From the NCBI GenBank assembly GCA_934162205.1, contig CAKPIA010000002.1:100494-164493 (forward strand): a stretch of 64,000 nt of DNA, in the 5' to 3' direction. Shown in pieces: positions 32,825 to 62,026 of this stretch. Under the pieces are notes generated by a model. The model searched no databases, was not told where the DNA came from, and was given only the letters and a program-made list of their open reading frames with translations. The translations under genes were made by a program, and so were the position numbers. The DNA is from an uncultured Clostridia bacterium (GTDB lineage: Bacteria > Bacillota > Clostridia > TANB77 > CAG-508). How positions within the stretch are numbered: position 1 is the stretch's first letter; every line of letters begins with the position of its first letter.

Positions 32825-33577
32825 TTATTCAGATATAGGACCATTATCTTCTGGTTGTACTTCTGTAGTTTTAGTACTTATAGTATTTCCAGCTAAGTCT
32901 TCATAGAAGATAACTAAAGCAACTTGTAAATAAGGTGCTATCCATAACATACCAATACCTAATGTAAATACTGATAAAATAAACCATCCTATAAATGTAA
33001 TTGGTAACCAAAACCAAGCCCATTTATGACCTTGCATTAATTCTTCACTTTTTTCAACTATAGATTTTGAATCCATATCTGGGTTATCATATAAAATGTA
33101 TTGAGCTAAAACATATGAGAATCCTTTAACAATTGCCCATATTAAAGAAACAATATAAAGAATAACTCCTAATATAGCTAAAAATCCCATGCTTTCTCCA
33201 GATACAATAGTTCCGGCTCCACCAACAGCAATTAGTACTATAGAAATAATTATTGCAATCATAGGAAGAAGCATTTTTAATATTGTTTGCCCAATTACTC
33301 CCCAAACTTTTCCGAATTGATTAAATCCATTTTTAAAGAAGTCAATATATCCAACTTCTTCATTTCTTTTTAGTTTTATAATTGAAACTAAAAATCCAAA
33401 AGTAAGTACTGGAGTAATTACTAAATTTATAAGTCCTCCAATCATAGGGATTAAGTTAAGTAAAAATGAAATTAAATATTCAATAACTCCAAATACTAAT
33501 GTTAATAATGCTGCTTTTCCCCATTTACCTGTTAAATTGTTACGAGCTTCTGCTCTAATTTGTGATGATACCATCAT
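32825..33577 (-). CDS. Polytopic membrane protein (DUF975-like, uncertain)
   Basis: RBS AGGGGG. Five to six TM helices. Likely co-transcribed with the upstream RR gene (34-bp gap). Confidence 0.45.
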   Translation of the reverse strand: MMVSSQIRAEARNNLTGKWGKAALLTLVFGVIEYLISFLLNLIPMIGGLINLVITPVLTFGFLVSIIKLKRNEEVGYIDFFKNGFNQFGKVWGVIGQTILKMLLPMIAIIISIVLIAVGGAGTIVSGESMGFLAILGVILYIVSLIWAIVKGFSYVLAQYILYDNPDMDSKSIVEKSEELMQGHKWAWFWLPITFIGWFILSVFTLGIGMLWIAPYLQVALVIFYEDLAGNTISTKTTEVQPEDNGPISE

Positions 33578-33611: not shown

Positions 33612-34673
33612 TTAATATTTTTCTTGAATTTCCTTTATTTTGTCATAATCATTATTTAAAATATCTAAGAATACATCTGTTAATTCTGGATCAAATTGTG
33701 TTCCTCTATTTTTTGCAAATTCTTCTTTAACTACTTCAATTGGCAAAGAATCTCTATAAGTTCTTTTAGAAGTCATAGCATCAAAACTATCTGCAATAGT
33801 AGCTATTCTTGCAAGATATGGAATATCTTCACCTTTTAACTGACTTGGATAACCATGACCATCATATCTTTCATGATGATGTTTAACAATTGGTATAATA
33901 TCTTTAAAAATTGTTGCATTTGATAAGATATGAGCACCAATTGATGGATGATTTTTAATTTGAGAATATTCATCATCAGTTAATCTTTCTGTTTTTTGAA
34001 TTATGCTATCTGGTACACCAATTTTTCCTATATCATGGAAAAGACCACCTATTTCAAGTGTTTTTAAATCAGTATCTGATAATCCAAGTTTCTTACCTAT
34101 TAATATAGAATATTCAGAAACTCTATCAGAATGACCTCTTGTATATGTATCTTTAGCTTCAACAGTATATCTTAATGTTTGAATACTTTCTAAGTAAGCT
34201 TTTTCTAGTTTGTCATATGTGTCAGAAAGTTCAACATTTATTCTTTTTATTTCATTCATTTGTGCAATTGATTTTAAACCTGATTCTATTAATAAAAGTA
34301 ATTGATCAAATTTATCTCCTTTTTCACAATAACCTTGAATATCTAATCTTCTTATAGTTTCAAGTGGAGGAGCTAAATCTTTGTGCCCTGTTAATAATAA
34401 TATATATAAATCTTTATCAAATTTTCTTATTTCTTCTACAACTTGGTCACCATGCAAAGGTGTCATGATAAAGTCTAATATTAATAAATCATAATGTTCT
34501 TTTTTTAATAACTCTATTGCTTCCATTGGATCTGTTAAACCAGTTAAAGTATAACCAGATCTTCTTAAAAAGACAGAAAGAGAATCAATTATTCCTGCTT
34601 CATCATCTACAGCAATTATTTTATACTTAGAATTAGGATTATTTTCTTGTTGTTGAGCAATTCCTTTTCTCAT
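33612..34673 (-). CDS. Two-component response regulator: receiver domain plus HD-GYP output domain
   Basis: RBS GAAGGAGG, then ATG (MRKGIAQ...). Receiver acidic pocket DDE...D, HD motif FHDIGK, HHERYDGHGYP. Confidence 0.85.
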   Translation of the reverse strand: MRKGIAQQQENNPNSKYKIIAVDDEAGIIDSLSVFLRRSGYTLTGLTDPMEAIELLKKEHYDLLILDFIMTPLHGDQVVEEIRKFDKDLYILLLTGHKDLAPPLETIRRLDIQGYCEKGDKFDQLLLLIESGLKSIAQMNEIKRINVELSDTYDKLEKAYLESIQTLRYTVEAKDTYTRGHSDRVSEYSILIGKKLGLSDTDLKTLEIGGLFHDIGKIGVPDSIIQKTERLTDDEYSQIKNHPSIGAHILSNATIFKDIIPIVKHHHERYDGHGYPSQLKGEDIPYLARIATIADSFDAMTSKRTYRDSLPIEVVKEEFAKNRGTQFDPELTDVFLDILNNDYDKIKEIQEKY

Positions 34674-34856
34674 ATAATTACCTCCTTCTACAATTACTGA
34701 CATTATATTAATAAATCATTAAAAAATCAATCATTTTATAAAAAAATTGCAAAAATCATTAAAAAAATTTATATTTTGTAAAATAAATTGCTTTTTTTTT
34801 ACAATAGGGTTATAATTTAAGCGATTATTAAAATTAAATTGTCAAAAGGTGATTAG

Positions 34857-37800
34857 ATGGAAAAAAAGGATGTTTATGAATTAACAAATCCACAAAAATC
34901 TATATGGAATACAGAATTGTTTTTCAGTAATACAACTGTAAATAATATATGCGTTTCAGGGATTATTAATGAAGAGGTTAATATAGAAATTTTGAAAAAA
35001 GCTATTAACTTGTTGGTTAAAGAAAATGATAGTTTTAGAACAAAATTAATAGTTAATGATAGTATACCAGTTCAATTTTTTAGTGAGTATATACCATTTG
35101 ATATTGATGTTACTAAAGTTGAAAATAAAAAAGAATTTAAGAAAATTGAACAACAAATGGTAGAAGAAAAATTTAATTTGATAAATTCTGAATTATATAA
35201 ATTTAAAATAGTAAAATTTCCTGATAATACTGCGGGAATTATTTTGAATGTTCATCATATGATTGCAGATTCTTGGTCATTGGGAATTACAATACAGGAA
35301 ATTGTAAAAATATATAAAACACTATTAGAAAATAAAGAATATATTTCAGATACTTTTTCTTATAAAAATTATATTGAGTCAGAAAGGGAATATAAAAATA
35401 GTAAGCGATTTGACAAAGATAAAGAATTCTGGAATGAGTATTTATCAGAAAATGTTGAACCTGTTTCAATTCCTTCTATAAATAGAAATATAGAAGTGAA
35501 ATCTTCTAATGGAAAAAGAACTTCATATGTATTAAAAAAAGATGTAATGAACAAAATTACAGAATTTTGCGAAAAAAATAAAATTTCAAATTATGTATTT
35601 TTTATGTCTGTTTTTTCAATATATATAGGAAATATGGCAAACACAGATAAATTCCTTTTAGGTACACCTATTTTAAATAGATTAAATTTCAAAGATAAAA
35701 AAACAGAGGGTATGTTTGTTACAACAGTACCTTTTAAAGTTGATATAGAAAATAATACATTTACAGAATTTGCTATAGATAACAATATTAATTTAATGTC
35801 TGTTTTAAGACATCAAAAATATTCATATACAGATATTATAGAAGATGTAAGAACAAAAAATCCTGACATTCCAAATCTTTATGATATTGCTATATCATAT
35901 CAAATAACAAAAGCAACTGCAGACGATATAGGAAATTATACAACAAATTGGACATTTAATAATAACTGTTTAAATGATATGAATATACATTTATATGATA
36001 TTAATGATACTGGAGAACTTAAAGTAGATTATGATTTCTTAACAGATAAATATTCAGAAAAAGAGATAGAAAATGGGCACAATAGAATTATACATATAAT
36101 AGAGCAAATTATAGAAAATCCTGATATAAATGTTCAAGATATAGAAATTGTAACAAATGATGAAAAGGAACAAATTGTTAATAAATTTAATAATAGAAAA
36201 CTAAAATGTCCTTTTGATAAAAATATTATAGAAATCTTTGAAGAACAAGTGGTAAAAAATGAAGATGAGATAGCACTTGTTTATAAAGAAAATCAATTTA
36301 CTTATAAAGAATTAAATAAAATTGTTAATAAATTTGCTAGATTCTTAAAGGAACAAGGAATAAATAAAAATGATATTGTAGGAGTTTATATGAACAAAAA
36401 TTATTGGTTTATTATATCAATTCTTGCAATTCAAAAATTAGGTGCAGCATATACACCAATGCACCCAGAATATCCAGAAGAAAGAGTAAATTATATATTA
36501 AATGATTGTAATTCAAAAGTATTAATAACAGATCAAGAAATATCTAATAAAGAATATAAAATAATAAATCCAAATCAAATATCTTTGGATTCTTTTGAAG
36601 ATACGAATTTAAATGAAGAATTTGATAGTAATACTTTGTGTTACGTTATATATACATCAGGTTCTACAGGAAAACCAAAAGGTGTTATGCTTACACATAG
36701 AAACTTGATTAATTTTGTATATAACTTTAATGAAGGCTTCAATACAAAATTTTCAAGAAATGATAATTGTTTATCACTTACAAATATTTCATTTGATGTT
36801 AGTGTATGCGAAATCTTTACACCATTAACACTAGGGGCTACATTAGTTATTTATCCAGAAAATACCTTAACAGATATTCATATGTTATGTGATCTTATAG
36901 AAAAAGAAAAAATAACATTTTTATATCTTCCACCAAGTGTTTTAAAAGATGTATATGAATTTATAAAAACAAATAATTATAAGTTTTATGTAGAAAAAAT
37001 GCTTGTTGGAGTTGAAGCAATTAAGAACTTAGATCTTAATAATTTGCTTTCATTGAATAAAAATCTTGAAATAGTTAATGGGTATGGACCAACAGAAACA
37101 ACAATATGTTCTACATTTTATAAATATGAGTTTAATAAAAAGAATGATGAAATTGTACCTATTGGATATCCATTAAGAAATAACGACATATATATTGTAA
37201 ATAAATTTAATAATTTACAACCAGTAGGAATACCAGGAGAATTAATAATATCAGGAGATAGCGTTTCTTTAGGATATTTAAATAATCTTGAAAAGACAGA
37301 AGAGTCATTTAAAAAGATTTCTAAACTAAAAAATGATATTTTCTATAAAACTGGTGATATTTCATATTGGAATGAAAATGGTTTCTTAAATTTCATAGGC
37401 AGACAAGATTCTCAAATAAAGTTTAGAGGACATAGAATTGAATTAAATGAAATAAATAATAATATAAAAATGATAAAAGGAGTTACAAATAGTATTACAA
37501 TATTAAAAAATATTAATGAAATACCATGTATTTGTAGTTATTTATCAAATGATGACAATATTATAACAGAGGATTATGTTAAAATTAAATTAAATGAAAT
37601 TTTACCATATTATATGATTCCAACACATGTAGTTTGTATGGAACAATTACCAATTAATAAAAGCGGAAAAGTAGATAAAAATTTATTGCCGGAAGTTTCT
37701 ATAACATCATTAAAATTTGTTGAAGCTTCTACATTAACGGAAATCAAAGTACATCAAATTTTATGCAAATTATTAAATTTGAATAAGATTTCTGTAATTG

Positions 37801-40800
37801 ATAACTTGTTTGAGTTGGGCATGGATTCTTTAATTTGTATAAGATTTTCTTTAGAAATTTATAATAATTTTAATATAAATATTTCTATAAAAGATTTATT
37901 TAAATATAATACAATTCAAGAAATATCAAAATATATAGATGAGGCAGATACAGCTTATAAGAACGAAGATGTACATATATATCCAAAAGAATTTAGTTAT
38001 CCATTATCATCTGCACAAAAAAGAATATATTATGCAACAAAATCAGCGGGAGAAAATTCACTTTTATATAATGTAAGCGGTGGTCTTTTCATTAAAGAGT
38101 TTTTAGATGCTGAAAAAGTAAATAAAATTTTTAATATATTAGTAGAGAAAAATAGCTCTTTGCGTACTTATTTTAAAATTGACAATGGAGAGCCAAGACA
38201 ATTTGTAATGGATTCAATATCTGTAAAAATTAATACATATAAGAATAAAGATATAATTAGAAATAATATATCTACATTAATTAATGCTTTTCCTAAGTCT
38301 TTTGATTTAGAATTTGCACCATTATTAAGAGTGGAATTACATTATATAAAAGATGGAACTTTAATATTAGTTGATTCACATCATATTATATTGGATGGAA
38401 CTTCTTTAAATATATTATTAAAAGATTTTTGTTATCTATATAATAATGAAGAATATGCTTATAACAAAGAAATAGAATATAAAGATTATTCTATTTGGGA
38501 AGATAATCTAATTAATACTTCTAGTTTTGAAATTATTAGAAATTATTGGAAGGAACGTTTCGAAAATTTTGAAATACCAGTAATTAATTTACCGTATGAT
38601 TATGCAGTTGGAGAAAAGAGAACATTTAATGGAAATAAATTATATTTTAAAATAGATAAAAAATTGTTTGAAAAAACAGAAAGAATTTCTAAAAAATATA
38701 ATGTGTCTTTATATATGATGTTTTTAACAAACTTATACTTAATGCTTTATAAATATACAGGACAAAATAATATAATAATAGGATCACCAATAGAGGCAAG
38801 GAACTCTATAAAATTAAATGATATAATAGGAATGTTTGTTAATAATATTGCTTTAAACTTAAATATTTTAGATGATTACACTTTAGAAAATTTAATTAAA
38901 AAAGTAAAAAGTTTGGTTTTAGGTTCTTTAACCAACCAACCTTATCCTTATGAGATGTTATTGAAAGATTTAAATATTCCTTCAACAACTTCATTATTTG
39001 ATGTTGTATTTACATTTCAAAATAATACAAATATAAATAATAGAATAAATAATAAAGTGTTAGAACTAATACCATCAAATACTCATACATCTAAATTTAA
39101 TTTGACTTTTGAAATAGATCCATCAACATATAATTTAAATATTGAGTATAATACAGATTTGTTTAAAAAAGAAACTATATGTAGCTTTTATAATCATTAT
39201 ATATATTTATTAGAGAATTTTGTTAGAAATCTTAATACAAAAGTTTCGGAAATAGATATTATTACTAAAAAAGAAGACGAATTACTAGCAATATTTAATA
39301 AAACAGATGGAAAAATTAACAATGATACAGTTGTATCTATAATAGAAGAACAAGTAAAAAAACATCCTAATAATATAGCAGTAATTTGTGACGATAAAAC
39401 GCTAACTTACAGAGAGTTAAATGATAAAGCTAATAGTTTAGCTCATGTGTTAATAGAAAAGGGAATTCAACCTAATGATATTGTTTGTATTATGACAAAC
39501 CGTTCATTAGAGACGATTGTGTGTATGTTAGGAATATTAAAAGCAGGAGCAGCATTTTTAAATGTTGATCCTACATATCCAATAGATAGAACTAAATATT
39601 ATTTAGAAAATTCAAAGACACAATATGTATTAACACAAGCTTGTTTGAAAGAAAAAGTTAAAGAAATAGAAAATTGTATAGAAATTGACTTGGAAAATGA
39701 TTTGTATAATAAAAAATGTAAAAACCCAAATGTAAAAGTTCAACCAAATGATTTATCATATATTATATATACATCTGGTTCAACAGGAACACCAAAAGGT
39801 GTAATGCTTAATCAAGTTGGTTTCGCCAATATGGCAAAAGCTATGACTAAGGTTCTAGATTATTTAAAAGAGGGAAATAAGCATTGTTTAATATCAGTAA
39901 CATCAACTCCATTTGATATATTTGTATATGAAATAATTGTTTCATTAACTCATGGATTAAAAATATTAATGGCAAATAATGCTGAACATAGAAATCCAGT
40001 ATTATTAGATGCATTAATAAAAAAATATAATGGTGATGTTATGACTGTTACTCCAAGTCTTATGAAAATAAATTATGATAATAGGCTTCAACCATCTGCA
40101 CTTTCTAATGTAAAACATATGGTATTTGGAGGAGAACCTCTTCCAGAAAAATTTGTTAGTGATTTAAGAGAGCTTTCAGAAGGAGTTACAATATATAATA
40201 TTTATGGCCCAAGTGAAATTACCATTTTATCAAATGTTCAGAAACTTGAAAAAAATGACAAAATAACAGTAGGACCACCTATTATGAATACACAAATACA
40301 TATATTAGATAAATTTGGAAAAAGAGTTCCAATAGGTGTTGTTGGAGAAATATACATATCTGGTATTCAAGTAGGACGAGGTTATTTAGGAAAACCAGAA
40401 ATGACTAAAGAAAGATTTTTAGATAACCCATTTGGTGAAGGAAAAATGTATAAATCAGGAGATATTGGAAGATGGACCTTTGATGGTAAAGTTCAATGTT
40501 TAGGTAGAGTTGATCATCAAATAAAACTACGTGGACTAAGAATAGAATTAGGCGAAATTGAAAACAAAATGGAATCTATAAAAGGTGTAATTGCTAGTGT
40601 TGTCAACAAAGTAGAATATAATGGAAAAGAAGTGCTTTGTGGATATTATGTTTGTAACAAAGAAGAAGTAACAGAACAGATTGTAAAAGAATATCTAAGA
40701 AAAGAATTGCCATATTATATGGTTCCAACATATATAATGAAATTAAAGGAAATGCCATATACAATAAATAGAAAAATAGATAGAAAAGCATTACCATTAC

Positions 40801-42308
40801 CACATTTTACAAATAATAAAAATAAAGATATTATTAGTGATAAAAAATTATCTGTAAGTGAAAAAAAATTACTAGATATATGGAAAAATGTTTTAAATAG
40901 TGATAACATATCAATTGACGATAATTTCTTTGATATAGGAGGAGACTCTATTTCTGCTATAACAATGCAGTTAGAAGCTATGAAATGTGGATTTGAATTT
41001 GAATATTCTGACATATTTAATTATCCAACTATAAAGATGCTTTCTAGTAAAGTATATATTAACTCAGAACAATATGAAGAATTAAAAGATTATGATTATT
41101 CTAAAATAAATGATATTTTAAAGAGAAATGAAGTAGATTGTCTAAAGGATATACATAAATTTAATGTAAAAAATATATTATTAATAGGTGGAACTGGATA
41201 TCTAGGAGCACACTTAATTAATGCTTTCTTAAATAATGAGAAAGGAAAAATTTATTGTTTGGTTCGTCCAAAAAACAATGTTATAGCATCTGAACGTTTA
41301 AAAAATACATTAAATTTCTATTTTGGGGATAATTATTATGAAAATAATATAAAAAGAATACACATTCTTGAAGGTGATATTGCTAAAAAGAATATGGGAT
41401 TATCTAAAGATAATATAGAATTATTGAAAAAAGAAATATCTACTATTATAAATTCAGGAGCAATAGTTAAACATTTTGGACAAAGAGCATTATTTGAAAA
41501 AATAAATGTTGAAGGTACAAAAAATATAGTAGAGATGTGTAAAAAATTAGAAAAAAGGTTAATTCATATATCTACTATTAGTATTTCTGGTAATGGAGAA
41601 AAAGAAAATTCCATAGATGAAAAAGAAAAGAATTCTTCAACAGAAAAAGTATTTACAGAAAGAGATATTTATGTTGGACAAAATCTAAATGGTGTATACA
41701 CAATTACAAAATTTGAAGCAGAAAGAATAATATTAGAAGAAATAGCAAATGGTTTAGATGCACAAATATTAAGAATAGGAAATATTGTTAATAGATATTC
41801 TGATGGTAAATTCCAAATAAATACATCAGAAAATGCTTTTGCTTCAAGAATAAAATCATTTATAAATATAGGTGCATTTCCAGAATATGCATTAAAACAT
41901 GCAATAGAATTAACACCAGTTGATTTATGTGCAAATGCAATAATAAAAATATTACAAAATAATAGCAAGGCAAATGTTTTTCATATATATAATACTAAAT
42001 TAATGTCAATAAAATCTTTTTATGAGGTATTAAGTGAAATGGGAATAAACATATTACCTGTTTCCGAAGAAAAGATGACTGATATAATAGAAAAACTATT
42101 AAATGATCCATTGAAGAAAAATATATTATCAGGAGTAATACCAGATATAGATGCTAATAAGCATTTAGTTTATACATCTAATATCACACTAGAATCTAGT
42201 TTTACGGAAGAATATTTGAAACAAATAGGCTTTTCGTGGGATGAGATTGATCAAAATTATATTACTAAATATATAGAATACTTTAGAAAAATAAAATTTA
42301 TAGAATAG
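34857..42308 (+). CDS. Non-ribosomal peptide synthetase, two modules with terminal reductase: C-A-T-C-A-T-R
   Basis: C1 HHMIADSWS. A1 cores YTSGSTGKPKGV, NGYGPTETT, YKTGD, GRQDSQIKFRGHRIELNEI, NKSGKVDK. T1 GMDSL. C2 HHIILDGTS. A2 cores YTSGSTGTPKGV, YGPSEIT, YKSGD, GRVDHQIKLRGLRIELGEIE, NRKIDRK. T2 GGDSIS. R domain GGTGYLGAHL (Rossmann) and YTITK (YxxxK). Confidence 0.95.
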   Translation: MEKKDVYELTNPQKSIWNTELFFSNTTVNNICVSGIINEEVNIEILKKAINLLVKENDSFRTKLIVNDSIPVQFFSEYIPFDIDVTKVENKKEFKKIEQQMVEEKFNLINSELYKFKIVKFPDNTAGIILNVHHMIADSWSLGITIQEIVKIYKTLLENKEYISDTFSYKNYIESEREYKNSKRFDKDKEFWNEYLSENVEPVSIPSINRNIEVKSSNGKRTSYVLKKDVMNKITEFCEKNKISNYVFFMSVFSIYIGNMANTDKFLLGTPILNRLNFKDKKTEGMFVTTVPFKVDIENNTFTEFAIDNNINLMSVLRHQKYSYTDIIEDVRTKNPDIPNLYDIAISYQITKATADDIGNYTTNWTFNNNCLNDMNIHLYDINDTGELKVDYDFLTDKYSEKEIENGHNRIIHIIEQIIENPDINVQDIEIVTNDEKEQIVNKFNNRKLKCPFDKNIIEIFEEQVVKNEDEIALVYKENQFTYKELNKIVNKFARFLKEQGINKNDIVGVYMNKNYWFIISILAIQKLGAAYTPMHPEYPEERVNYILNDCNSKVLITDQEISNKEYKIINPNQISLDSFEDTNLNEEFDSNTLCYVIYTSGSTGKPKGVMLTHRNLINFVYNFNEGFNTKFSRNDNCLSLTNISFDVSVCEIFTPLTLGATLVIYPENTLTDIHMLCDLIEKEKITFLYLPPSVLKDVYEFIKTNNYKFYVEKMLVGVEAIKNLDLNNLLSLNKNLEIVNGYGPTETTICSTFYKYEFNKKNDEIVPIGYPLRNNDIYIVNKFNNLQPVGIPGELIISGDSVSLGYLNNLEKTEESFKKISKLKNDIFYKTGDISYWNENGFLNFIGRQDSQIKFRGHRIELNEINNNIKMIKGVTNSITILKNINEIPCICSYLSNDDNIITEDYVKIKLNEILPYYMIPTHVVCMEQLPINKSGKVDKNLLPEVSITSLKFVEASTLTEIKVHQILCKLLNLNKISVIDNLFELGMDSLICIRFSLEIYNNFNINISIKDLFKYNTIQEISKYIDEADTAYKNEDVHIYPKEFSYPLSSAQKRIYYATKSAGENSLLYNVSGGLFIKEFLDAEKVNKIFNILVEKNSSLRTYFKIDNGEPRQFVMDSISVKINTYKNKDIIRNNISTLINAFPKSFDLEFAPLLRVELHYIKDGTLILVDSHHIILDGTSLNILLKDFCYLYNNEEYAYNKEIEYKDYSIWEDNLINTSSFEIIRNYWKERFENFEIPVINLPYDYAVGEKRTFNGNKLYFKIDKKLFEKTERISKKYNVSLYMMFLTNLYLMLYKYTGQNNIIIGSPIEARNSIKLNDIIGMFVNNIALNLNILDDYTLENLIKKVKSLVLGSLTNQPYPYEMLLKDLNIPSTTSLFDVVFTFQNNTNINNRINNKVLELIPSNTHTSKFNLTFEIDPSTYNLNIEYNTDLFKKETICSFYNHYIYLLENFVRNLNTKVSEIDIITKKEDELLAIFNKTDGKINNDTVVSIIEEQVKKHPNNIAVICDDKTLTYRELNDKANSLAHVLIEKGIQPNDIVCIMTNRSLETIVCMLGILKAGAAFLNVDPTYPIDRTKYYLENSKTQYVLTQACLKEKVKEIENCIEIDLENDLYNKKCKNPNVKVQPNDLSYIIYTSGSTGTPKGVMLNQVGFANMAKAMTKVLDYLKEGNKHCLISVTSTPFDIFVYEIIVSLTHGLKILMANNAEHRNPVLLDALIKKYNGDVMTVTPSLMKINYDNRLQPSALSNVKHMVFGGEPLPEKFVSDLRELSEGVTIYNIYGPSEITILSNVQKLEKNDKITVGPPIMNTQIHILDKFGKRVPIGVVGEIYISGIQVGRGYLGKPEMTKERFLDNPFGEGKMYKSGDIGRWTFDGKVQCLGRVDHQIKLRGLRIELGEIENKMESIKGVIASVVNKVEYNGKEVLCGYYVCNKEEVTEQIVKEYLRKELPYYMVPTYIMKLKEMPYTINRKIDRKALPLPHFTNNKNKDIISDKKLSVSEKKLLDIWKNVLNSDNISIDDNFFDIGGDSISAITMQLEAMKCGFEFEYSDIFNYPTIKMLSSKVYINSEQYEELKDYDYSKINDILKRNEVDCLKDIHKFNVKNILLIGGTGYLGAHLINAFLNNEKGKIYCLVRPKNNVIASERLKNTLNFYFGDNYYENNIKRIHILEGDIAKKNMGLSKDNIELLKKEISTIINSGAIVKHFGQRALFEKINVEGTKNIVEMCKKLEKRLIHISTISISGNGEKENSIDEKEKNSSTEKVFTERDIYVGQNLNGVYTITKFEAERIILEEIANGLDAQILRIGNIVNRYSDGKFQINTSENAFASRIKSFINIGAFPEYALKHAIELTPVDLCANAIIKILQNNSKANVFHIYNTKLMSIKSFYEVLSEMGINILPVSEEKMTDIIEKLLNDPLKKNILSGVIPDIDANKHLVYTSNITLESSFTEEYLKQIGFSWDEIDQNYITKYIEYFRKIKFIE

Positions 42309-42318
42309 AGGAATTTTT

Positions 42319-44133
42319 ATGGAATTAATGACTTTTCCCTTTATATTGTTAATAATATCTACAATTACAATAACAGTTTTGGCTTTTTATATTTCAAATA
42401 AAAAGCCTCTAATGCAATTACAAAAATCATTTTTTGGAATATTAATATGTGTATTAGTTATATGTTATGGTGTACTTTTTCAGAGTATTTTTAACAAGAT
42501 ATTTAATATAGATCCTATTTATTTTGAATATATAATATATATTGGGACTTGTTTTTTACCAGTTACAATATTCTTAATGGCTACTATATTAAGAGATACA
42601 AAAATAAAATTAAGAAGATGGCACTTATTATTATTTATTGTTCCAATAATATCATTGTTTGTATTATGGACTAATTCTTTTCACCATTTATTTTATATAG
42701 AATATTCTGGTGATATGTCAAAGGTTGTATATGGTGCGTATTTTTATATTCATACAGCATATACATATATATTGTTGTTTATAAGTATGTATATTTTGCT
42801 TAAAAATTCATTCAAGACCTCTGGAATATTTTCTAAGCAATCAATATTATTTATTATAGGAACAAGTATACCAATATTAATAAATATACTAGGGACATTA
42901 AAAGTAATAAACATGAATGTATATATGACACCTATATCTTTTTCAATAACAGTAATATTTTATGCACTTGCAATTTTTAAATTTAACTTTTTAGGTGTTG
43001 CACCAATTGCTGTTCAAAAAATAGTAGATAAAATCTCAGACAGTTATCTTGTATTAAGTGAGGATGGAGCGATTACAGATTATAATAAAACATTTTTAAC
43101 AACATTTAAAATAAAAAGTGATAATTTAAGAGGAAAAGATTTTGTAGGATTCTTAAAAGAAAAGAAATTTTCAATTAATGAAAAAAGATTAAGACATTCA
43201 ATTGCAAAAGCGAAAGAAACAGAAAAAATAATATCTTATGAATCAGAAATAAAGAAAATTAATAAAATATTTATGGTAGAAATAAGTTCTATATCATCAA
43301 AAGGAACATTTTTAGGAATAGTAATTTTATTAAAAGATATAACACAACATAAGCACGATATACAAACAATAAGAGATAACCAGGAAACACTTATGGAAAA
43401 AGAAAGACTTGCTTCTCTTGGTCAATTAATTGGTGGTATAGCACATAACTTAAAAACACCTATAATGTCTATATCAGGAGCAGCAGAAGGATTACTAGAC
43501 TTAATTCAAGAATATGATAATTCTATAGAAGATCCTGAAGTTACACCACAAGATCATCATGAAATTGCATCAGATATGAGAGAATGGATTTCGAAAATAA
43601 AAGTTCATACAGCATATATGTCAGATGTAATTACAGCGGTTAAAGGACAAGCTGTTGCATTATCAGAAGATGAAATTGTAACATTTGATGTAGATGAATT
43701 AGTAAAACGTGTTAATATCTTAATGAAACATGAATTAAAAAATGCTATTATATATTTAAATGTAGATATGCAGGTAGACAGTAGTTTGACTATGAAGGGT
43801 GATGTTAATAATTTAGTTCAAGTTATTAATAATATGATATCAAACTCAATTCAAGCATATAATGGAAAACCAGAACAAAATATTGATATGATTTTAACTA
43901 AAAAAAATAATAATTTAGTTATTTCAATAAGAGATTATGCTGGAGGATTACCAGAAGTAGTTAAGAAAAAATTATTTAAAGAAATGATAACAACAAAAGG
44001 TAAAAATGGTACTGGACTTGGATTGTATATGTCTTATTCAAATATAAGAGCACATTTTAATGGAGATATTACAGTTGAAACTGAAGATGGTAAAGGTACA
44101 ACGTTTAATATAATTTTACCAATAGATAATTAA
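42319..44133 (+). CDS. Sensor histidine kinase: 7-TM N-terminal domain, PAS-like, HisKA, HATPase_c
   Basis: RBS AGAGGA overlaps the NRPS stop codon. H-box LASLGQLIGGIAHNLKTP; G-boxes GTGLGLY. Confidence 0.85.
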   Translation: MELMTFPFILLIISTITITVLAFYISNKKPLMQLQKSFFGILICVLVICYGVLFQSIFNKIFNIDPIYFEYIIYIGTCFLPVTIFLMATILRDTKIKLRRWHLLLFIVPIISLFVLWTNSFHHLFYIEYSGDMSKVVYGAYFYIHTAYTYILLFISMYILLKNSFKTSGIFSKQSILFIIGTSIPILINILGTLKVINMNVYMTPISFSITVIFYALAIFKFNFLGVAPIAVQKIVDKISDSYLVLSEDGAITDYNKTFLTTFKIKSDNLRGKDFVGFLKEKKFSINEKRLRHSIAKAKETEKIISYESEIKKINKIFMVEISSISSKGTFLGIVILLKDITQHKHDIQTIRDNQETLMEKERLASLGQLIGGIAHNLKTPIMSISGAAEGLLDLIQEYDNSIEDPEVTPQDHHEIASDMREWISKIKVHTAYMSDVITAVKGQAVALSEDEIVTFDVDELVKRVNILMKHELKNAIIYLNVDMQVDSSLTMKGDVNNLVQVINNMISNSIQAYNGKPEQNIDMILTKKNNNLVISIRDYAGGLPEVVKKKLFKEMITTKGKNGTGLGLYMSYSNIRAHFNGDITVETEDGKGTTFNIILPIDN

Positions 44134-44143
44134 ATAAAAGATG

Positions 44144-44172
44144 TTTGACAATAAGGTATTTATGTATTAAAA
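44144..44172 (+). promoter_or_regulatory. Sigma-A promoter upstream of hisS
   Basis: TTGACA - 17 nt - TAAAAT. Followed by a 26-nt palindrome (aaagctatgtatatgtttacatagcttt) at 44189-44216. Confidence 0.55.
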
Positions 44173-44243
44173 TATAACAAACATCAAAGAAAAGCTATGT
44201 ATATGTTTACATAGCTTTAAACATATAAAACAAGGAGAAAAAT

Positions 44244-50636: not shown

Positions 50637-51830
50637 ATGGAAAAAAATAATAGAAAATATATAGCGATAATTGAATTTTTAAGAAAATTTATGAGTGTAT
50701 TCTTTTCTTTGTTTTTCAATATATATATATTAAAAATTGTAAACAATGATATGAATTTTATTCTAAAGTATACTGTATACTCAGTAATTCTAGGATTTGT
50801 ATTAGAATATGTGTTATTAAAAATAATAAATTCAAAAAATGCTAGTTTTATTTATAGAATGAGTTTTATATTAAGTGTATTAAGTATAATAATTTTGATT
50901 ATATTTAAAGAAAATATTGTAAATTATATATTATTATTTAAAACTTTAGATACAATGAGGTTACTATTTTATTCAGTACCATATGAACTTATTATAATAG
51001 GATCAAATAGCAATAAATCAATGAGTAGTTACTTGGCGAATTTAAACATATTAGGGAATATTACAGCTATATTAACACCTATATTTTCTGGATTTGTAAT
51101 AGAAAAATTTTCATATAATATTTTATTTATTATATTGGCAATAGAAACAATATTAATAATATTAGTATCTTTAAAAATTAAGGATTTTACAGTACAAGAT
51201 AATAAAATGGATTTAAAAGAATACTGGAAAATCGCAAAAGATAAGCAACATATAAAAGATATATATAATTGTATGTTTTTTAGAAGAATATCAGCACAAG
51301 GTGCAATGACAGAATTATTACCAATTGTTTTATTTTTGAGACTTGGTACAGAATTTAGTTTTGGAAGTTATAATACAGTATTTGCATTAATTTCAATCAT
51401 TTCATTGCAAATACTAAAAATAATAAATAGTAAAAATATAAACAAAAGATTTTATCCATATATGGCAATAGCAATTTTTATATCATCTTTATTTGTTGTA
51501 TTTAATACAAGTTTTATAGCATTGTTAATTTATTATATATTAATGAACTCATTTGGAACAATAATTGAATCTGAGTCATGTAGCTTGGTATATTCAGCAA
51601 TTAAAGTAGATAATTTAGAAAAATACAGAAAAGAGCATATAATGATGTTTAATATTTATATGTTTTTAGGACAACTAATAAGTTATAGTTTGGTATTTAT
51701 TTTGTATAATTATTTCTACAATGTAAATATATTATCAATAACAATTGCTATTTTAATGTTTTTCTTAATAATAGCTACAATTTATTTAAGAAAAACAGAA
51801 GATTATATGTATAAATGTATGAAAAGATAG
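50637..51830 (+). CDS. Polytopic membrane protein (about 12 TM; transporter-like)
   Basis: Hydrophobicity pattern only. Confidence 0.45.
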   Translation: MEKNNRKYIAIIEFLRKFMSVFFSLFFNIYILKIVNNDMNFILKYTVYSVILGFVLEYVLLKIINSKNASFIYRMSFILSVLSIIILIIFKENIVNYILLFKTLDTMRLLFYSVPYELIIIGSNSNKSMSSYLANLNILGNITAILTPIFSGFVIEKFSYNILFIILAIETILIILVSLKIKDFTVQDNKMDLKEYWKIAKDKQHIKDIYNCMFFRRISAQGAMTELLPIVLFLRLGTEFSFGSYNTVFALISIISLQILKIINSKNINKRFYPYMAIAIFISSLFVVFNTSFIALLIYYILMNSFGTIIESESCSLVYSAIKVDNLEKYRKEHIMMFNIYMFLGQLISYSLVFILYNYFYNVNILSITIAILMFFLIIATIYLRKTEDYMYKCMKR

Positions 51831-53684: not shown

Positions 53685-54902
53685 ATGAAAACTAAATTAG
53701 ACAGAAGTGCAAAATCGTTAATGGCATGTGATCTAACTAATGATATTATAAACTTATTTGGTGAAACTTTTTTAATAGCATATTTTTTACAAATTTCTAA
53801 TGAAAATATAATACAAGTTTCAACATTTTATATAATTTTATATCTACTATTAGGTGTTGGAAGTATTTTATTAGGTAATATAATTAAGAGCAAACCTAAA
53901 AAAAGAGTTTCAGTTTATCGATTTGGTATTATAATCAAATCGATTTATATATTATTAATAGTATTACTTAAAGACAAAATAAGTAAATATTTTATAATTT
54001 TTGCAATCTTTTATGGTATTGCCGAAGCTTTATACTGGTCAACACATGATGTAATGAATACACAAATAGTTGATAATGAAAATAGAAAAAAATATATGAC
54101 AACAAAAAGAATTTTAAGTAAGTTTATAAATATATTAGTTCCTATAATATTAGGAACATCTATAGAATTAACATCTTTTGGGAATATAGCAATATATATA
54201 TTTGTATTAACTTTATTCCAAATAATGATGTCATTACAAATAGATACTAATAAATTTGTTATTGAGGATAAAATTGAAAAGTATAATTTAAAGAATTATA
54301 TAACAGATTTATCTATCAAACAAAAAGAAAATATAAACAAAATTTATAAATTAGCTTTTTTATATGGAATTATGATGGATACAATACGAGTATTAGTAGT
54401 TGTTATAACAATTATGACTTTTAAAACTTCTTTTAATTTAGGAATGTTAACAACTATATTCTCTATTTTTTCTATGATATCACTATATTTATTTAATAAA
54501 TTGTATCAAAAGAAACATGCAAAAAAATTATTGAGTTTTTGTGCTACATTATCGGTATTAGGAGTATTAGGTTTAATATTAAATATAAATCAAACAACAT
54601 TAATAATTTATAATTTTACATATAGCATAACTGTATATGTTTTAGAAGTCATGTTTAAAATTAAAGCAGATGATGCAGTTAAAGAAAATAATATAGAAAA
54701 ATGGTTAGTGGAATATCATACTTTTATAGGAGGATTTATGGAAATAGGAAGAATAACAGGATTTATACTAATGCTATTGGTAGGTATGTTAAATAATGTT
54801 ATATACTTTAAGTTATTATTATTGATAGTTACTATTTCTATACCTGTATATGCTAGAATAATGTACAAACTGGAAAAATCATTAGTAAAAGACAATGCTT
54901 AG
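53685..54902 (+). CDS. Polytopic membrane protein (transporter-like)
   Basis: RBS GAAAGGAAAA; 10-12 TM helices. Confidence 0.45.
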   Translation: MKTKLDRSAKSLMACDLTNDIINLFGETFLIAYFLQISNENIIQVSTFYIILYLLLGVGSILLGNIIKSKPKKRVSVYRFGIIIKSIYILLIVLLKDKISKYFIIFAIFYGIAEALYWSTHDVMNTQIVDNENRKKYMTTKRILSKFINILVPIILGTSIELTSFGNIAIYIFVLTLFQIMMSLQIDTNKFVIEDKIEKYNLKNYITDLSIKQKENINKIYKLAFLYGIMMDTIRVLVVVITIMTFKTSFNLGMLTTIFSIFSMISLYLFNKLYQKKHAKKLLSFCATLSVLGVLGLILNINQTTLIIYNFTYSITVYVLEVMFKIKADDAVKENNIEKWLVEYHTFIGGFMEIGRITGFILMLLVGMLNNVIYFKLLLLIVTISIPVYARIMYKLEKSLVKDNA

Positions 54903-58320: not shown

Positions 58321-59217
58321 ATGAATAATAATTATAATCTATTAAGAAGCAAAGATATAATTGCAATATTAGATGGAGATTTTCAAATAGAAGAAGTTGA
58401 TGGTATAAGAATTGCTATGCCATATTTAAGCGGACCAATGCTTTGTGAACTTTCCCAAAAATTTGGATACTATCAGGAATATTACTGGGGAAATAGTTCT
58501 AAACCAAATTTGAGTAGATGGCAGTATATGGATAATATTTTGGAATATGTTATTAAAGAAAATAAGACAAGCCAACTTTTGTCATATATGATGGAGAAAG
58601 AAAGATTTTCGGATAGTTTGAGAAACCTAAATAATGTAAATGATATAGAAAAAATGTATAAATATATTATAAAAAAAGTTATAGATCAAATTAATTCTAT
58701 ATTGTATTTTGGTGGGCACGAATTAGTTATAATTAATAATCAATATATCATCAAGAATATCGATGAGAAAATTAATATCGATGTTCCGAATATAAATATT
58801 GTTGATAGAGATTATATTAAAGATTTATCTGAACGTGCAATGAAAGATATAGATGAAGGAAATTTAGATAGTGCCATTACAAAATCAAGAACCATTTTAG
58901 AAGAAACTTTTTGTTACGCTATTGAAATTAAAGGAGAAGAACCTTCTGATAGTGGTGATATTGGGAAGTTATATAAACAAGTAAAAGACTTGTATAATAT
59001 GCATGCAAATAAAGATATGGATAAAAGAGTTAATAAGTTATTATCTGGGCTTGAAAATATTGTTCAGTCAATTGCTGAAATGAGAAACAATGGAAGTGAT
59101 TCGCATGGTCTTGGAAATAAGCGAGTAAATATTTCAGACTACCATGCTAGATTAGCTGTAAATTCTTCTACCACTATGGCTGAATTTATTCTCTCTGTAT
59201 CTCAGAATTCAAAATAA
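58321..59217 (+). CDS. AbiJ-like abortive-infection-type protein with C-terminal HEPN (Abi_C-like) domain
   Basis: C-terminal EMRNNGSDSHGLGN contains an Rx6H HEPN-type motif, followed by a hydrophobic helix LAVNSSTTMAEFIL. 19 bp after the NUDIX gene. Confidence 0.5.
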   Translation: MNNNYNLLRSKDIIAILDGDFQIEEVDGIRIAMPYLSGPMLCELSQKFGYYQEYYWGNSSKPNLSRWQYMDNILEYVIKENKTSQLLSYMMEKERFSDSLRNLNNVNDIEKMYKYIIKKVIDQINSILYFGGHELVIINNQYIIKNIDEKINIDVPNINIVDRDYIKDLSERAMKDIDEGNLDSAITKSRTILEETFCYAIEIKGEEPSDSGDIGKLYKQVKDLYNMHANKDMDKRVNKLLSGLENIVQSIAEMRNNGSDSHGLGNKRVNISDYHARLAVNSSTTMAEFILSVSQNSK

Positions 59218-59323
59218 TAATTTGAAGTTAAGGGTATGGGAATTCCCATAATAGAATTTATGCGGGAGTATAAATTCAGTGCTGGCTAGACACTACTTTT
59301 ACTCCCACATTGGAAAACATAGA

Positions 59324-59364
59324 AAAAGAGGATTAAATTATTTTGATAATTTTTTCCTCTTTTT
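59324..59364. terminator. Bidirectional terminator between the cargo operon and the minus-strand recombination genes
   Basis: aaaagaggat - 22-nt loop - tcctctttttttt. Confidence 0.55.
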
Positions 59365-59374
59365 TTGAGATTAT

Positions 59375-59731: not shown

Positions 59732-59755
59732 AGTTTTATCAATCCTTTCTTAATT

Positions 59756-61979: not shown

Positions 61980-62026
61980 AAAATAAAAACTTACGAACTT
62001 TAATTAGTCCGTAAGTTGTCTTCAAA

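Follow-up and report, generated by a model that had tools for sequence, protein, structure and literature searches.

Reductase-ended nonribosomal peptide synthetases (NRPSs) are abundant in the gut microbiome and are best known for making dipeptide aldehydes and pyrazinones that inhibit host proteases. The synthetase considered here, from an uncultured Clostridia bacterium, shares its locus with a histidine kinase (HK) and an HD-GYP response regulator (RR). The original prediction, drawn from the window alone (the whole 64,000-nt stretch of DNA analysed), had tied the synthetase functionally to the kinase and regulator, and conserved linkage, allelic cassettes and co-variation now lend that tie strong comparative support. 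On balance we favour a three-gene signalling module, in which a strain-specific NRPS signal would meet a matching kinase and be passed on as a second-messenger output.

Synthetase, kinase and regulator in the window

The features on which the argument rests are as follows, with NRPS domains placed by Pfam/NCBIfam:
34857–42308, + strand: NRPS, 2483 aa, C-A-T-C-A-T-R by Pfam, NCBIfam and motifs
34857–36176, + strand: NRPS C1 domain
36219–37691, + strand: NRPS A1 domain
37734–37946, + strand: NRPS T1 domain
37989–39296, + strand: NRPS C2 domain
39324–40811, + strand: NRPS A2 domain
40854–41081, + strand: NRPS T2 domain
41154–42305, + strand: NRPS R domain
42319–44133, + strand: HK, 604 aa (Pfam HisKA_7TM, PAS_9, HisKA, HATPase_c)
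42319–43005, + strand: HK 7TM sensor (HisKA_7TM, 7e-37)
43015–43353, + strand: HK PAS domain (PAS_9)
43396–44130, + strand: HK DHp and catalytic core (HisKA, HATPase_c)
34788–34816, + strand: sigma-70-type promoter of the NRPS-HK operon, conserved in relatives
34788–34793, + strand: promoter -35 TTGCTT, with a 17-nt spacer to the -10
34811–34816, + strand: promoter -10 TATAAT, invariant in the aligned upstream regions
33612–34673, - strand: RR, 353 aa (Pfam Response_reg and HD_5/HD, 1e-36)
~34290–34619, - strand: RR REC domain (Response_reg)
~33681–34166, - strand: RR HD-GYP domain (HD_5/HD)
32825–33577, - strand: DUF975 membrane protein (Pfam DUF975, 6.7e-45), 34 nt downstream of the RR

Pfam and motifs bear out the predicted C-A-T-C-A-T-R synthetase of 2483 aa (Condensation twice, 1.4e-174; AMP-binding twice, 8e-167; PP-binding twice, 1e-23), and because the open reading frames are long and the domain matches very strong, chance is no concern. 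Its two A-T modules are complete, with core motifs and phosphopantetheine-attachment serines intact: both A domains carry the A4, A5, A7 and A8 motifs along with Lys938 and Lys1973, and the sequence reads HHMIADSWS at aa 133 (C1), LGMDSL with Ser991 (T1), HHIILDGTS at aa 1175 (C2) and IGGDSI with Ser2031 (T2). Across 102 NRPS homologues, Ser991, His1175/1176, Asp1180 and Ser2031 are kept in every one, as is Asp138 of C1, and C1 His134 is kept in 101. Again as predicted, the place of a thioesterase (no such domain was found) is taken at the C-terminus by a thioester reductase of the SDR type, which has both the GxxGxxG nucleotide site and the Thr/Tyr/Lys triad. It matches NAD_binding_4 (1e-48, aa 2110–2362) and reads GGTGYLG at aa 2111 and YTITK at aa 2281; Gly2111/2114/2117, Arg2137, Tyr2281 and Lys2285 are present in 102/102 homologues, and Thr2113 and Thr2240 in 100/102.

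The best NCBIfam match is AusA (NF047350), at 1383 bits over aa 1044–2478 (C2-A2-T2-R), which points to kinship with pyrazinone and dipeptide-aldehyde synthetases; orthology with AusA itself was rejected on the partial coverage and on a score far short of the 2500-bit equivalog cut-off. The aureusimine synthetase AusA/PznA of Staphylococcus aureus (A-T-C-A-T-R) is likewise dimodular and uses a terminal thioester reductase to make a dipeptide aldehyde (PMC8210680). Unlike AusA, the window NRPS has an extra N-terminal C domain and no adjoining AusB-type PPTase, and AusA has no link to a kinase or to allelic cassettes.

That extra domain had been called a starter-type C domain, a call that stands as to position and catalytic His (C1 starts at residue 1 with no carrier domain before it, and its HHxxxD motif is intact) and is weaker as to sequence. 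C1 scores 93 bits against TycC6 (LCL), 67 against VibH, 50 against the RzmA starter C domain and 32 against CDA-C1, whereas C2 scores 231 against TycC6 and at most 34 against starter C domains. By these scores C1 looks like a divergent C domain, relatively nearer to starter or stand-alone C domains and not clearly of the lipo-initiation subtype.

The NRPS, with specificity codes DVCYLGGICK (A1) and DIYTVGIILK (A2), would load two alpha-amino acids, of which the first is probably N-acylated by C1, and free the dipeptide by reduction, giving an aldehyde or perhaps an alcohol, predicted outcomes that both fit the sequence. Pyrazinone cyclisation requires a free N-terminal amine, and an N-acylated dipeptide aldehyde therefore cannot become a pyrazinone; the two are alternative predicted fates, not successive steps as the original prediction had them. 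An N-acyl tail also stabilises a dipeptide aldehyde (PMC8210680), and among the gut Clostridia NRPSs that release dipeptide aldehydes some make products whose N-acyl tail prevents pyrazinone formation (PMC8210680, PMC12327764). The window NRPS resembles these gut-commensal synthetases, RupA included, in its gut Clostridia origin and predicted aldehyde release, as far as summaries of that work allow comparison. The gut-commensal dipeptide-aldehyde NRPS family was reportedly set out by Guo et al. in 2017 (Cell 168:517), and ruminopeptin, from RupA of Ruminococcus bromii, is said to have been described by Schneider & Balskus in 2018. The searchable literature on these synthetases makes no mention of a linked 7TM kinase, HD-GYP regulator or within-species cassettes. 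No PPTase, MbtH, ACP or acyl ligase gene was found anywhere in the 64-kb window, even at E<0.1; the nearest transporters, MFS genes at 50637–51830 and 53685–54902, lie at a distance and are not conserved neighbours in related loci, in line with the predicted lack of an adjoining PPTase, MbtH or transporter gene.

The 7TM-PAS kinase begins 11 nt after the NRPS stop, just as first described. With a 10-nt spacer between them, the two genes are probably translationally coupled; a ribosome-binding site, GAGGAA, overlaps the NRPS stop codon. A hydropathy scan of the kinase gives six strong segments and one weaker. The H-box His and the N, G1 and G2 boxes are in place: all 102 homologues share His376, Asn505/509, Asp539 and Gly543, and 100–101 of them also have the G2-box glycines Gly564/566/568. 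In aligned upstream regions of relatives the TATAAT is present in 7/7 and a -35 of the form TTGnnn in 6/7 (it is missing in L003); in an alternative allele of the cassette described below (L168), the promoter sequence matches the window almost base for base. No Rfam riboswitch was found at E<=1.

The RR is divergent and upstream of the NRPS, and Pfam finds no DNA-binding domain in it, which agrees with the original prediction. Although its open reading frame spans 33612–34703 (- strand), the true start is almost certainly 34673, since a GGAGGT lies 7 nt upstream of it, alignment with homologues begins at this point and gene calling gives a protein of 353 aa. The receiver has its phospho-acceptor Asp, acidic pair, Thr and Lys: of 102 homologues (363-aa numbering) all share Asp33/34, Asp77 and Thr105, and 101 share Lys128; H191, H223-D224, H252, H276-H277-E278, D281, G284-Y285-P286, D305 and D308 are likewise invariant, so that the HD-GYP metal ligand set and the HHExxDGxGYP motif are complete. 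The best solved relatives are V-cGAP3 (5z7c, 5e-44), which is cGAMP-specific, and then PmGH (4mcw, 1.6e-37), which is c-di-GMP-specific; the predicted substrate is c-di-GMP or possibly 3'3'-cGAMP. The DUF975 gene is probably co-transcribed with the RR, and its place in the signalling module is uncertain: it follows the RR in L041, L046, L048, L058, L060 and L083, and is elsewhere or missing in most relatives. The window also encodes a second HD-GYP protein and a GGDEF-like protein; the latter has a GGDDF motif and no phospho-Asp, and is therefore only a putative source of c-di-GMP.

Linkage among related gut Clostridia

The relatives found are all gut MAGs. Two sets were scored for linkage, 74 genomes at species level and 73 metagenome loci anchored on the kinase, all from one clade of related uncultured gut Clostridia whose shared ancestry inflates the counts: every one of the 74 genome loci has the HK immediately after the NRPS, and the NRPS adjoins the HK in 71/73 anchored loci, or effectively 73/73, the other two being alignment-edge effects. 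The RR falls inside the flank in 65 of the 74 genome loci and is present in 71 of the 73 anchored ones; in 58 of the 73 it stands next to the HK and is read from the same strand. Nearly all relatives carry NRPS, HK and RR in that order on a single strand. The original prediction of a synthetase embedded within a two-component system holds for the window, whose layout is derived and lineage-specific: exactly the NRPS-HK block is inverted, and it is because of this inversion that HK and RR are divergent there. Trimodular NRPS relatives of 3.5 kaa occur in three settings: the same locus, a LemA locus that also has the RR, and a RadA/DisA locus that has the HK and lacks the RR. The linkage counts show that the association is not accidental, and the NRPS-HK pair survives changes of context and architecture, being kept in at least three unrelated genomic contexts with two or three modules.

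Distances between kinase cores and REC domains are correlated after controls (partial Mantel r 0.45, p 0.0005), which suggests that HK and RR are a cognate two-component pair, with phosphotransfer predicted between them. The NRPS is fragmented in about 16 of 71 species representatives, and one sub-clade has NRPS frameshifts near aa ~2105 in common beside an intact HK; the kinase can therefore be retained without a working synthetase, which fits an eavesdropping receptor and also fits a kinase with some other signal. Divergently upstream of the NRPS, roughly 57/74 loci carry an HtrA-type serine protease with PDZ domains. The protease is missing from the window and from the RadA/DisA-context loci; the kinase is never missing.

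A hypervariable cassette across synthetase and sensor

The main feature of the locus, absent from the original prediction, is that the NRPS and the HK 7TM form a hypervariable within-species cassette:
34908–43005, + strand: hypervariable allelic cassette (NRPS codons 18–2483, the 10-nt spacer and HK codons 1 to ~228, the 7TM)

The cassette is ~8.1 kb long, its left edge lies at 34907/34908 and its right end is the end of the 7TM domain. Between the window and the same-species loci L167, L168 and L169 the flanks are 95–99% identical and the cassette 48–77% (nt); outside the cassette, the PAS-kinase core and RR are 97–100% identical between strains. The window species has at least four alleles with identical edges, the right one falling at 42980–43010 (within about 30 nt) in all six allele pairs. 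The four natural alleles of this one species differ from each other in predicted dipeptide and in 7TM, the rest of the kinase being identical; the 7TM regions of L167 and L168 are 50–51% identical to that of the window, and the HK proteins P0122, P0123, P0126, P0127 and P0128 match the window HK at ~99–100% from aa ~231 on, with visible divergence up to that point. Other species behave likewise: L043 and L079 have flanks at 1.00 identity on either side of a block at 0.48–0.76 that takes in the NRPS and the initial ~700 nt of the HK, and L077 compared with L107 and L090 shows the same near-identical flanks around a divergent NRPS-HK 5' block. Three further species-like groups (kinase core and RR >=97% identical) hold 5, 2 and 2 7TM alleles, every one of them with an A1 code to itself, and where kinase cores are >=90% identical the 7TM identity is 0.92 if the A1 code is the same and 0.67 if it is different. 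The sensor allele matches the specificity code one-to-one.

Sensor and synthetase are adjacent, and most of this co-variation could be block inheritance, a confound that only two mosaic pairs break. The A1–7TM Mantel correlation is small (partial r 0.13–0.22, in tests that are liberal), and the residual correlation after control for the intervening T2-R and A2 is small. In the mosaic of L130 and L009, one divergent patch in A1-T1 (0.48–0.54 identity) and another in the HK sensor (+300 to +1200 nt, 0.67–0.81) are 4.2 kb apart, with 0.97–1.00 identity between them, and L058 and L046 form a similar pattern; in these two mosaics the A1-T1 swap goes with a separate, non-contiguous change in the kinase sensor. 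The 7TM alleles share many invariant residues and, for this reason, are taken as functional rather than decaying. Just past the right edge the sequence is highly conserved (GVAPIA.QKIVD..SDSY); conserved patches within the 7TM region are not crossover points. A cassette with fixed edges over synthesis and sensor, joined to a conserved transmitter and regulator, is a pherotype-type pattern.

A signal, a weapon or a passenger?

The same hypervariable synthesis-plus-sensor pattern is known from the Bacillus comQXPA pherotypes as well as from agr. In the staphylococcal agr (agrBDCA) groups the hypervariable region spans agrB-agrD-agrC and leaves kinase transmitter and regulator conserved (PMC10482373), and the window cassette is similar in that its fixed edges enclose the signal genes and the N-terminal kinase sensor. 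Unlike agr and com, however, where the signal is a ribosomal peptide and the regulator binds DNA and autoinduces its operon, the signal here would be the non-ribosomal product of a 7.5-kb gene and the regulator is an HD-GYP enzyme; no transcriptional feedback element was found, the RR lacking a DNA-binding domain and no riboswitch appearing at E<=1. For the output the nearer likeness is Rpf/DSF of Xanthomonas, with its RpfF synthase, RpfC kinase and RpfG REC-HD-GYP regulator, and c-di-GMP degradation as output (PMC6337780). Here, too, the gene of a putative signal synthase is grouped with those of a membrane sensor kinase and of a REC-HD-GYP regulator that has no DNA-binding output, and by analogy the module may work like Rpf. 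Membership of the Rpf/DSF family was nonetheless rejected: the synthase is an NRPS where RpfF is an enoyl-CoA hydratase, and the kinase, of simple 7TM-PAS build with no REC or HPt by Pfam, differs from RpfC, a hybrid that has both. The host differs as well, being a Gram-positive gut anaerobe. Pherotype-like cassettes are not known from Rpf. In CqsA/CqsS of Vibrio and LqsA/LqsS of Legionella an autoinducer synthase gene adjoins that of a polytopic membrane kinase whose signal is the hydrophobic product, much as a small-molecule synthase is encoded beside a membrane kinase here; their synthase is PLP-dependent, and the sensor fold and downstream phosphorelay differ.

Judging from these sequence patterns, the most likely role of the NRPS product is that of a strain-specific signal to which the matching kinase responds. 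The HK, co-transcribed and probably translationally coupled with the NRPS, would recognise the product through its 7TM (plus PAS) input domain and phosphorylate the REC-HD-GYP regulator, which would then hydrolyse a cyclic dinucleotide, either c-di-GMP or possibly 3'3'-cGAMP. Output would thus be a second-messenger level rather than transcription, and any change in downstream physiology would follow from that level. Synthetase specificity and sensor domain would diversify jointly as interchangeable alleles while transmitter and RR stay constant, so that the system would act like pherotype-type quorum sensing or kin discrimination (agr, comQXP) with an Rpf-like HD-GYP output. In its most specific form, with (N-acyl) dipeptide aldehydes as strain-specific pheromones, matched synthetase/7TM alleles and RR cyclic-dinucleotide hydrolysis as the readout, we put this forward tentatively, as falling somewhat short of an even chance.

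The product might instead act mainly outward, as a protease inhibitor or an antagonist whose targets would be host cathepsins, the proteases of competitors or the producing cell's HtrA, with the polymorphism reflecting an arms race; HK and RR would then sense some other envelope or host cue and be co-inherited, serving at most in self-recognition or immunity. Dipeptide aldehydes from gut commensal NRPSs do inhibit host proteases and are stabilised by an N-acyl tail (PMC8210680, PMC12327764), and both the frequent upstream HtrA gene (roughly 57/74 loci) and the NRPS pseudogenes beside intact kinases sit well with such a role. We nevertheless consider it unlikely as the main function, for it leaves unexplained why the variable block always takes in the 7TM and ends at the 7TM/PAS junction, and why the kinase sensor changes separately alongside an A1-T1 swap; moreover it is HtrA, never the kinase, that is missing from the window and the RadA/DisA-context loci. 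Inhibition and signalling are not exclusive, and a dual use as weapon and autoinducer, as with lantibiotics, is possible.

Two further explanations carry less weight. Under pure genomic linkage, balancing or diversifying selection would act on the NRPS alone and the 5' part of the kinase gene would hitch-hike, with crossovers resolving in the first strongly conserved sequence, the PAS/linker region. Adjacency, the small residual correlation after T2-R and A2 control, the generally faster evolution of transmembrane sensor domains than of kinase cores, and the conserved GVAPIA.QKIVD..SDSY as a possible crossover site are all compatible with this; yet the pair is kept in at least three unrelated contexts with two or three modules, the right edge recurs in all six window-species allele pairs and in other species while conserved patches inside the 7TM go unused, the 7TM alleles keep many invariant residues, and the two mosaics place A1-T1 and sensor patches several kb apart across near-identical DNA, all of which makes it improbable. 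Still harder to credit is that the 7TM docks the synthetase at the membrane or aids product export, the kinase reporting flux rather than an external signal. Although the cluster has no conserved transporter, the genes are probably translationally coupled (10-nt spacer) and the 7TM tracks the NRPS alleles, HisKA_7TM has no described transport function or ligand, an energy-coupling component is absent, and kinases are intact where the NRPS is broken.

In at least 74 species the synthetase comes with a sensor kinase and HD-GYP regulator as a fixed set, and synthetase and sensor alleles are exchanged together within species, which points to producer-side signalling. If true, the uncharacterised HisKA_7TM sensor would gain its first class of ligand and Rpf-type signalling to c-di-GMP a Gram-positive analogue, and the module would stand as the first pherotype system based on an NRPS. 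On the pheromone reading it would be the non-ribosomal, second-messenger-output counterpart of the agr/com pherotypes, lineages that kept the receptor and lost the synthetase would be eavesdroppers, and at least some of the 'host-protease-inhibitor' gut NRPSs would natively serve bacterial kin discrimination. Among most relatives the second residue is constant and the first module has more than 20 specificity codes, so that the family amounts to a natural combinatorial library useful for NRPS engineering.

The synthetase–kinase–regulator locus and its relatives

The locus consists of a large nonribosomal peptide synthetase (NRPS), a histidine kinase and a divergently transcribed response regulator (RR), and the coordinates and Pfam domains of all three agree with the ORFs and domain order of the original prediction.

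Genes of the locus and the NRPS promoter
33612-34703 (start 34673), - strand: divergent ORF (RR); Pfam Response_reg-HD_5
34788-34816: NRPS promoter, TTGCTT, 17 nt, TATAAT; -10 box invariant in 7/7 relatives
34857-42308, + strand: large ORF (NRPS), 2483 aa; Pfam Condensation-AMP-binding-PP-binding twice, then NAD_binding_4
42319-44133, + strand: kinase ORF, 604 aa; Pfam HisKA_7TM-PAS-HisKA-HATPase_c

Three observations place the RR start at 34673: a GGAGGT 7 nt upstream of it, homologue alignments that begin there and a called gene of 353 aa. Between the NRPS stop codon and the kinase start there are 10 nt, and the ribosome-binding site (RBS) of the kinase overlaps that stop codon. As a generic promoter/terminator scan was uninformative in DNA of ~25% GC (110 sites against 117 expected), the NRPS promoter was identified by conservation. 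The synthetase motifs read earlier are all found (HHMIADSWS at aa 133, GGTGYLG at aa 2111, YTITK at aa 2281), along with carrier serines Ser991 and Ser2031 and a C2 motif, HHIILDGTS, at aa 1175. The earlier reading of no adjacent phosphopantetheinyl transferase (PPTase), MbtH or transporter gene holds; for PPTase and MbtH it extends to the full 64 kb, where we also found no ACP or acyl ligase, and no PPTase emerged among the unannotated ORFs even at E<0.1. Searches upstream of the NRPS and between the kinase and HisRS gave no c-di-GMP or other riboswitch at E<=1, only one chance sRNA match, and no feedback element was found at the locus. The kinase–HisRS spacer of the window (44134-44243) holds a promoter-like TTGACA-17-TAAAAT (44145-44173) and a perfect 11-bp-stem hairpin (44191-44218). 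It lacks a NUDIX gene; a 146-aa NUDIX protein is encoded between kinase and HisRS in two loci of the same species (L167 12115-12555, L168 12125-12565). The surrounding genes are chromosomal housekeeping genes (Tex, HisRS, AspRS, MinD/E, RodA); a plasmid origin of the locus was considered and rejected, given these surroundings and the lack of a PLSDB match by megablast with the NRPS.

Taken alone, the NRPS belongs to the known reductase-terminated dipeptide-aldehyde synthetases (gut Firmicutes, AusA) and is not an AusA orthologue. In NCBIfam it is closest to AusA, the aureusimine synthetase, with 1383 bits over aa 1044-2478. This score is well under the equivalog cut-off of 2500, and module 2 and the reductase (R) domain are thus related, rather than orthologous, to pyrazinone/dipeptide-aldehyde synthetases. 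With 231 bits to TycC6, C2 is typical of LCL elongation domains. PDB similarity shows C1 to be divergent: its score to TycC6 is 93 bits, and full-length matches, absent or weak for C2, connect it with VibH, CDA-C1 and the starter C domain of RzmA. By its position C1 is the predicted starter domain, and a functional one, since its catalytic residues are conserved (His134 in 101/102 homologues, Asp138 in 102/102).

Adenylation-domain specificity codes come from an alignment of the A4, A5 and A10 motifs with GrsA positions 235-517, which we take to be the code positions; their validity is supported by relatives that yield canonical codes for Gly (DILQLGMIWK), Thr (DFWNIGMVHK) and Val (DAFWLGGTFK) and a Pro-like code (DVQFIAHVAK). 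The window codes, DVCYLGGICK for A1 and DIYTVGIILK for A2, both keep Asp235 and Lys517, which indicates alpha-amino acid substrates. We know of no canonical code that matches either one, and neither is mentioned in the searchable literature. Across ~100 loci the A2 code is almost invariant (DIYTVGI[IV]LK) and A1 takes more than 20 codes, including the canonical Gly, Thr and Val codes and the Pro-like one, suggesting that in most of the family the aldehyde-bearing residue is fixed and the residue before it variable. An exception is the window species, whose alleles differ in A2 as well.

Scanning GTDB at one genome per species yielded 74 loci with this NRPS, all from uncultured gut Clostridia (among them Clostridium sp. 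CAG:780, CAG:452 and CAG:389; Hadza, Brazilian, rabbit and mouse gut metagenome-assembled genomes, MAGs). The kinase lies directly 3' of the NRPS in every one (74/74) and the RR falls inside the 6-kb flank in 65/74, while neighbours further out vary; the usual order is HtrA< NRPS> HK> RR> [DUF975>] Tex< (HK, the kinase). A kinase-anchored scan recovered 80 metagenome loci (kinase identity 55-66%), with the NRPS adjacent in 71 of the 73 that had enough upstream sequence, the other two being alignment-edge effects, and the RR present in 71/73. Both kinase homologue searches reached close relatives only (>=55% identity), and all loci are from MAGs and metagenomes of one clade. Trimodular versions of the NRPS (~3.5 kaa; 3504-3549 aa in L081, L083, L084, L165 and L166) are always followed by a 7TM kinase of the same type, in three contexts: the usual locus, a LemA locus that includes the RR, and a RadA/DisA/PPIase locus where the kinase is present and the RR absent. 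These contexts make NRPS plus kinase the tightest unit. Upstream of the NRPS and divergent from it, ~57/74 loci encode a membrane-anchored serine protease of HtrA/DegP type with PDZ domains (e.g. L003 4653-5798, L077 6664-7824, L083 6583-7719); by tblastn, the 64-kb window has none. That a serine protease gene adjoins one for a predicted protease-inhibiting aldehyde may be meaningful or may be plain synteny.

The order in the window (Tex> DUF975< RR< NRPS> HK> HisRS>) equals that of L046 and L058 (HtrA< HisRS< NRPS> HK> RR> DUF975> Tex<) apart from an inversion of the NRPS-HK block. The inverted arrangement is common to independent assemblies and is therefore real, and the inverted NRPS retains its own conserved promoter. 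Where the block ends on either side, a search for IS remnants and inverted repeats gave low-complexity AT-rich matches only. Elsewhere in the family, five loci (L021, L025, L031, L040, L056) carry a block with a TraG/VirD4-like coupling protein (~500 aa) between kinase and RR, the start of the RR gene recurs at the end of L056, and the RR is flipped in eight others (L095-L097, L106, L141, L144, L163, L164). Such insertions, recurrence and flips suggest a locus prone to insertions and inversions.

A hypervariable NRPS–7TM cassette

Among 61 non-redundant loci, mean pairwise identity is 0.35-0.46 for C1, A1, T1 and C2, 0.54 for the kinase 7TM domain and 0.48 for PAS; the corresponding values are 0.73 for A2, 0.70 for the kinase core and 0.74-0.82 for the RR. 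These low means are explained by pairs of loci with near-identical flanks and divergent NRPS and 7TM sequences: in some, kinase core and RR are 99-100% identical and NRPS and 7TM merely 30-80%. For example, nucleotide identity between L043 and L079 is 1.00 up to the NRPS start, 0.48-0.76 over the NRPS and ~700 nt at the kinase start, and 1.00 thereafter, and L077 shows the same profile against both L107 and L090.

At least four alleles occur in the window species, all in the inverted arrangement and with flanks 95-99% identical.

Adenylation codes of the alleles in the window species
Window: A1 DVCYLGGICK; A2 DIYTVGIILK; reference
L169: A1 DVCYLGGICK; A2 DIFQVAGVFK; C1-A1 99% identical to window
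L167: A1 DAQFSGGICK; A2 DAFWLGGTFK (Val); only A1 pocket segment replaced
L168: A1 DAFWLGGTFK (Val); A2 DILQMGMVWK (Gly-like)

On its left side the variable block begins at 34907/34908, past NRPS codon 17, such that promoter, RBS and the first 17 codons are common to the alleles. The right edge falls at 42980-43010 (kinase codon ~221-231, the end of the 7TM domain) in all six allele pairs, with kinase nucleotide identity rising from 62-66% before it to 96.7-98.5% after. Variation also occurs on a finer scale: window and L167 are 97% identical in C1 and mostly identical in A1, and a pocket segment of A1 (~36657-37016, NRPS aa 601-720) drops to 0.55-0.75 identity and changes the code from DVCYLGGICK to DAQFSGGICK. 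NRPS engineering uses sub-domain swaps of this kind; here one has arisen naturally.

When loci with >=97% identical PAS-core and RR are treated as species-like groups, three groups carry 5, 2 and 2 alleles of the 7TM domain, each with its own A1 code. Similarly, where the kinase core is >=90% identical, 7TM identity is 0.92 if the A1 code is shared versus 0.67 if it is not. The comQXP quorum-sensing genes have a similar hypervariable pattern. The cassette is also like agr, where the hypervariable region spans agrB, agrD and the agrC sensor (PMC10482373).

Linkage versus functional matching

Adjacency alone could yield most of the co-variation between NRPS and 7TM domain, the kinase sensor simply hitch-hiking with the synthetase. 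After control for the intervening regions, mirror-tree/Mantel correlations are significant, small (partial r 0.13-0.22) and confounded by linkage, and for this reason we put weight on the nucleotide profiles within species. In two mosaic pairs the divergent patches are non-contiguous, which breaks the adjacency confound. L130 and L009, with flanks at 0.97-1.00, diverge in A1-T1 (0.48-0.54) and again in the kinase sensor (+300 to +1200 nt; 0.67-0.81); the 4.2 kb in between, C2-A2-T2-R plus the initial 300 nt of the kinase, are at 0.97-1.00. Between L058 and L046, an A1-T1 patch and a patch covering T2-R plus 7TM flank a C2-A2 stretch at 0.91-0.95. Alternatively, the 7TM domain might serve in docking or export, or the product might be an outward-directed protease inhibitor and the kinase unrelated or of an immunity type. 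We favour functional matching because the right edge sits constantly at a domain junction, because the NRPS-kinase pair is kept in unrelated contexts and because many residues are invariant among the 7TM alleles. Together, these patterns argue for a kinase input domain that is functionally matched to the NRPS or its product.

The NRPS is fragmented, into 2-6 ORFs each, in ~16/71 species representatives. In one sub-clade (L070, L073, L074, L075) a common frameshift lies near residue ~2105 and the kinase is intact, which looks like inherited loss of the synthetase with the receptor kept. Broken NRPS with intact kinase fits receptor-only eavesdroppers, and equally a kinase with another signal. 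Individual broken loci include L070 and L072-L075, as well as L060-L063, L067 and L068; common frameshifts near aa ~610, ~800 and ~1644 occur in L072 and L073, and kinase and flanking ABC-F gene are mostly intact in broken-NRPS loci.

The regulator and a proposed signalling circuit

Every receiver (REC) and HD-GYP catalytic residue is present in the RR and invariant in 102 homologues. Among solved structures the RR is closest to V-cGAP3, which is specific for cGAMP, and PmGH, which is specific for c-di-GMP. The kinase H-box and ATP-binding boxes are likewise intact; its sensor family, HisKA_7TM, has no described ligand. Adjacency of the genes and co-variation of the kinase core with REC (partial r 0.45) support a cognate kinase-RR relationship.

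It is plausible, then, that the NRPS would make a dipeptide aldehyde, probably N-acylated, that the co-transcribed kinase would use its 7TM domain, either alone or together with PAS, to sense this product and would phosphorylate the REC-HD-GYP regulator, and that the regulator would in turn hydrolyse c-di-GMP or cGAMP. We infer product, sensing, phosphotransfer and phosphodiesterase activity from sequence-level facts, and consider the chain as a whole moderately probable. Reductive release and N-acyl stabilisation are known for the dipeptide-aldehyde class (PMC8210680). In outline, the logic is like that of RpfF, RpfC and RpfG (PMC6337780) and resembles that of CqsA/CqsS; however, the module is without the features that define Rpf, agr/comQXP and CqsA/CqsS, be it synthase type, kinase architecture, ribosomal pheromone or DNA-binding regulator. 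We found no literature linking NRPSs to HD-GYP regulators, HisKA_7TM kinases or pherotype-like cassettes, in a coverage that stops short of Guo 2017 and Schneider & Balskus 2018.

Other components of cyclic-dinucleotide signalling are present in the window, as it encodes two further proteins of this kind. A second, stand-alone HD-GYP protein (17493-18410, - strand) has intact HD and HHE..DG.GYP motifs and adjoins a MazF/PemK toxin gene (17111-17470). The other (9659-10606, + strand) is a degenerate REC-like and GGDEF-like protein, with GGDDF in place of GG[DE]EF and Asn at the phospho-acceptor Asp site of its receiver (LIIINEDA); a cyclase that is inactive or non-canonical is one possibility, and a partner that binds the HD-GYP regulator another.

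Two additional regions of the window are of note. A probable integrated element (58321-62100) lies beside tRNA-Gly (62027-62100).

Genes of the probable integrated element
58321-59217: Abi_C abortive-infection protein
59375-59731: TnpV
59756-61537: large serine recombinase

At the other end of the window, a probable surface protein of 1331 aa is encoded at 3747-7742 (+ strand). The one domain recognised in it is a DUF11 repeat at the C terminus, and its neighbours are cell-wall genes (glucosaminidase, D-Ala-D-Ala carboxypeptidase, amidase).
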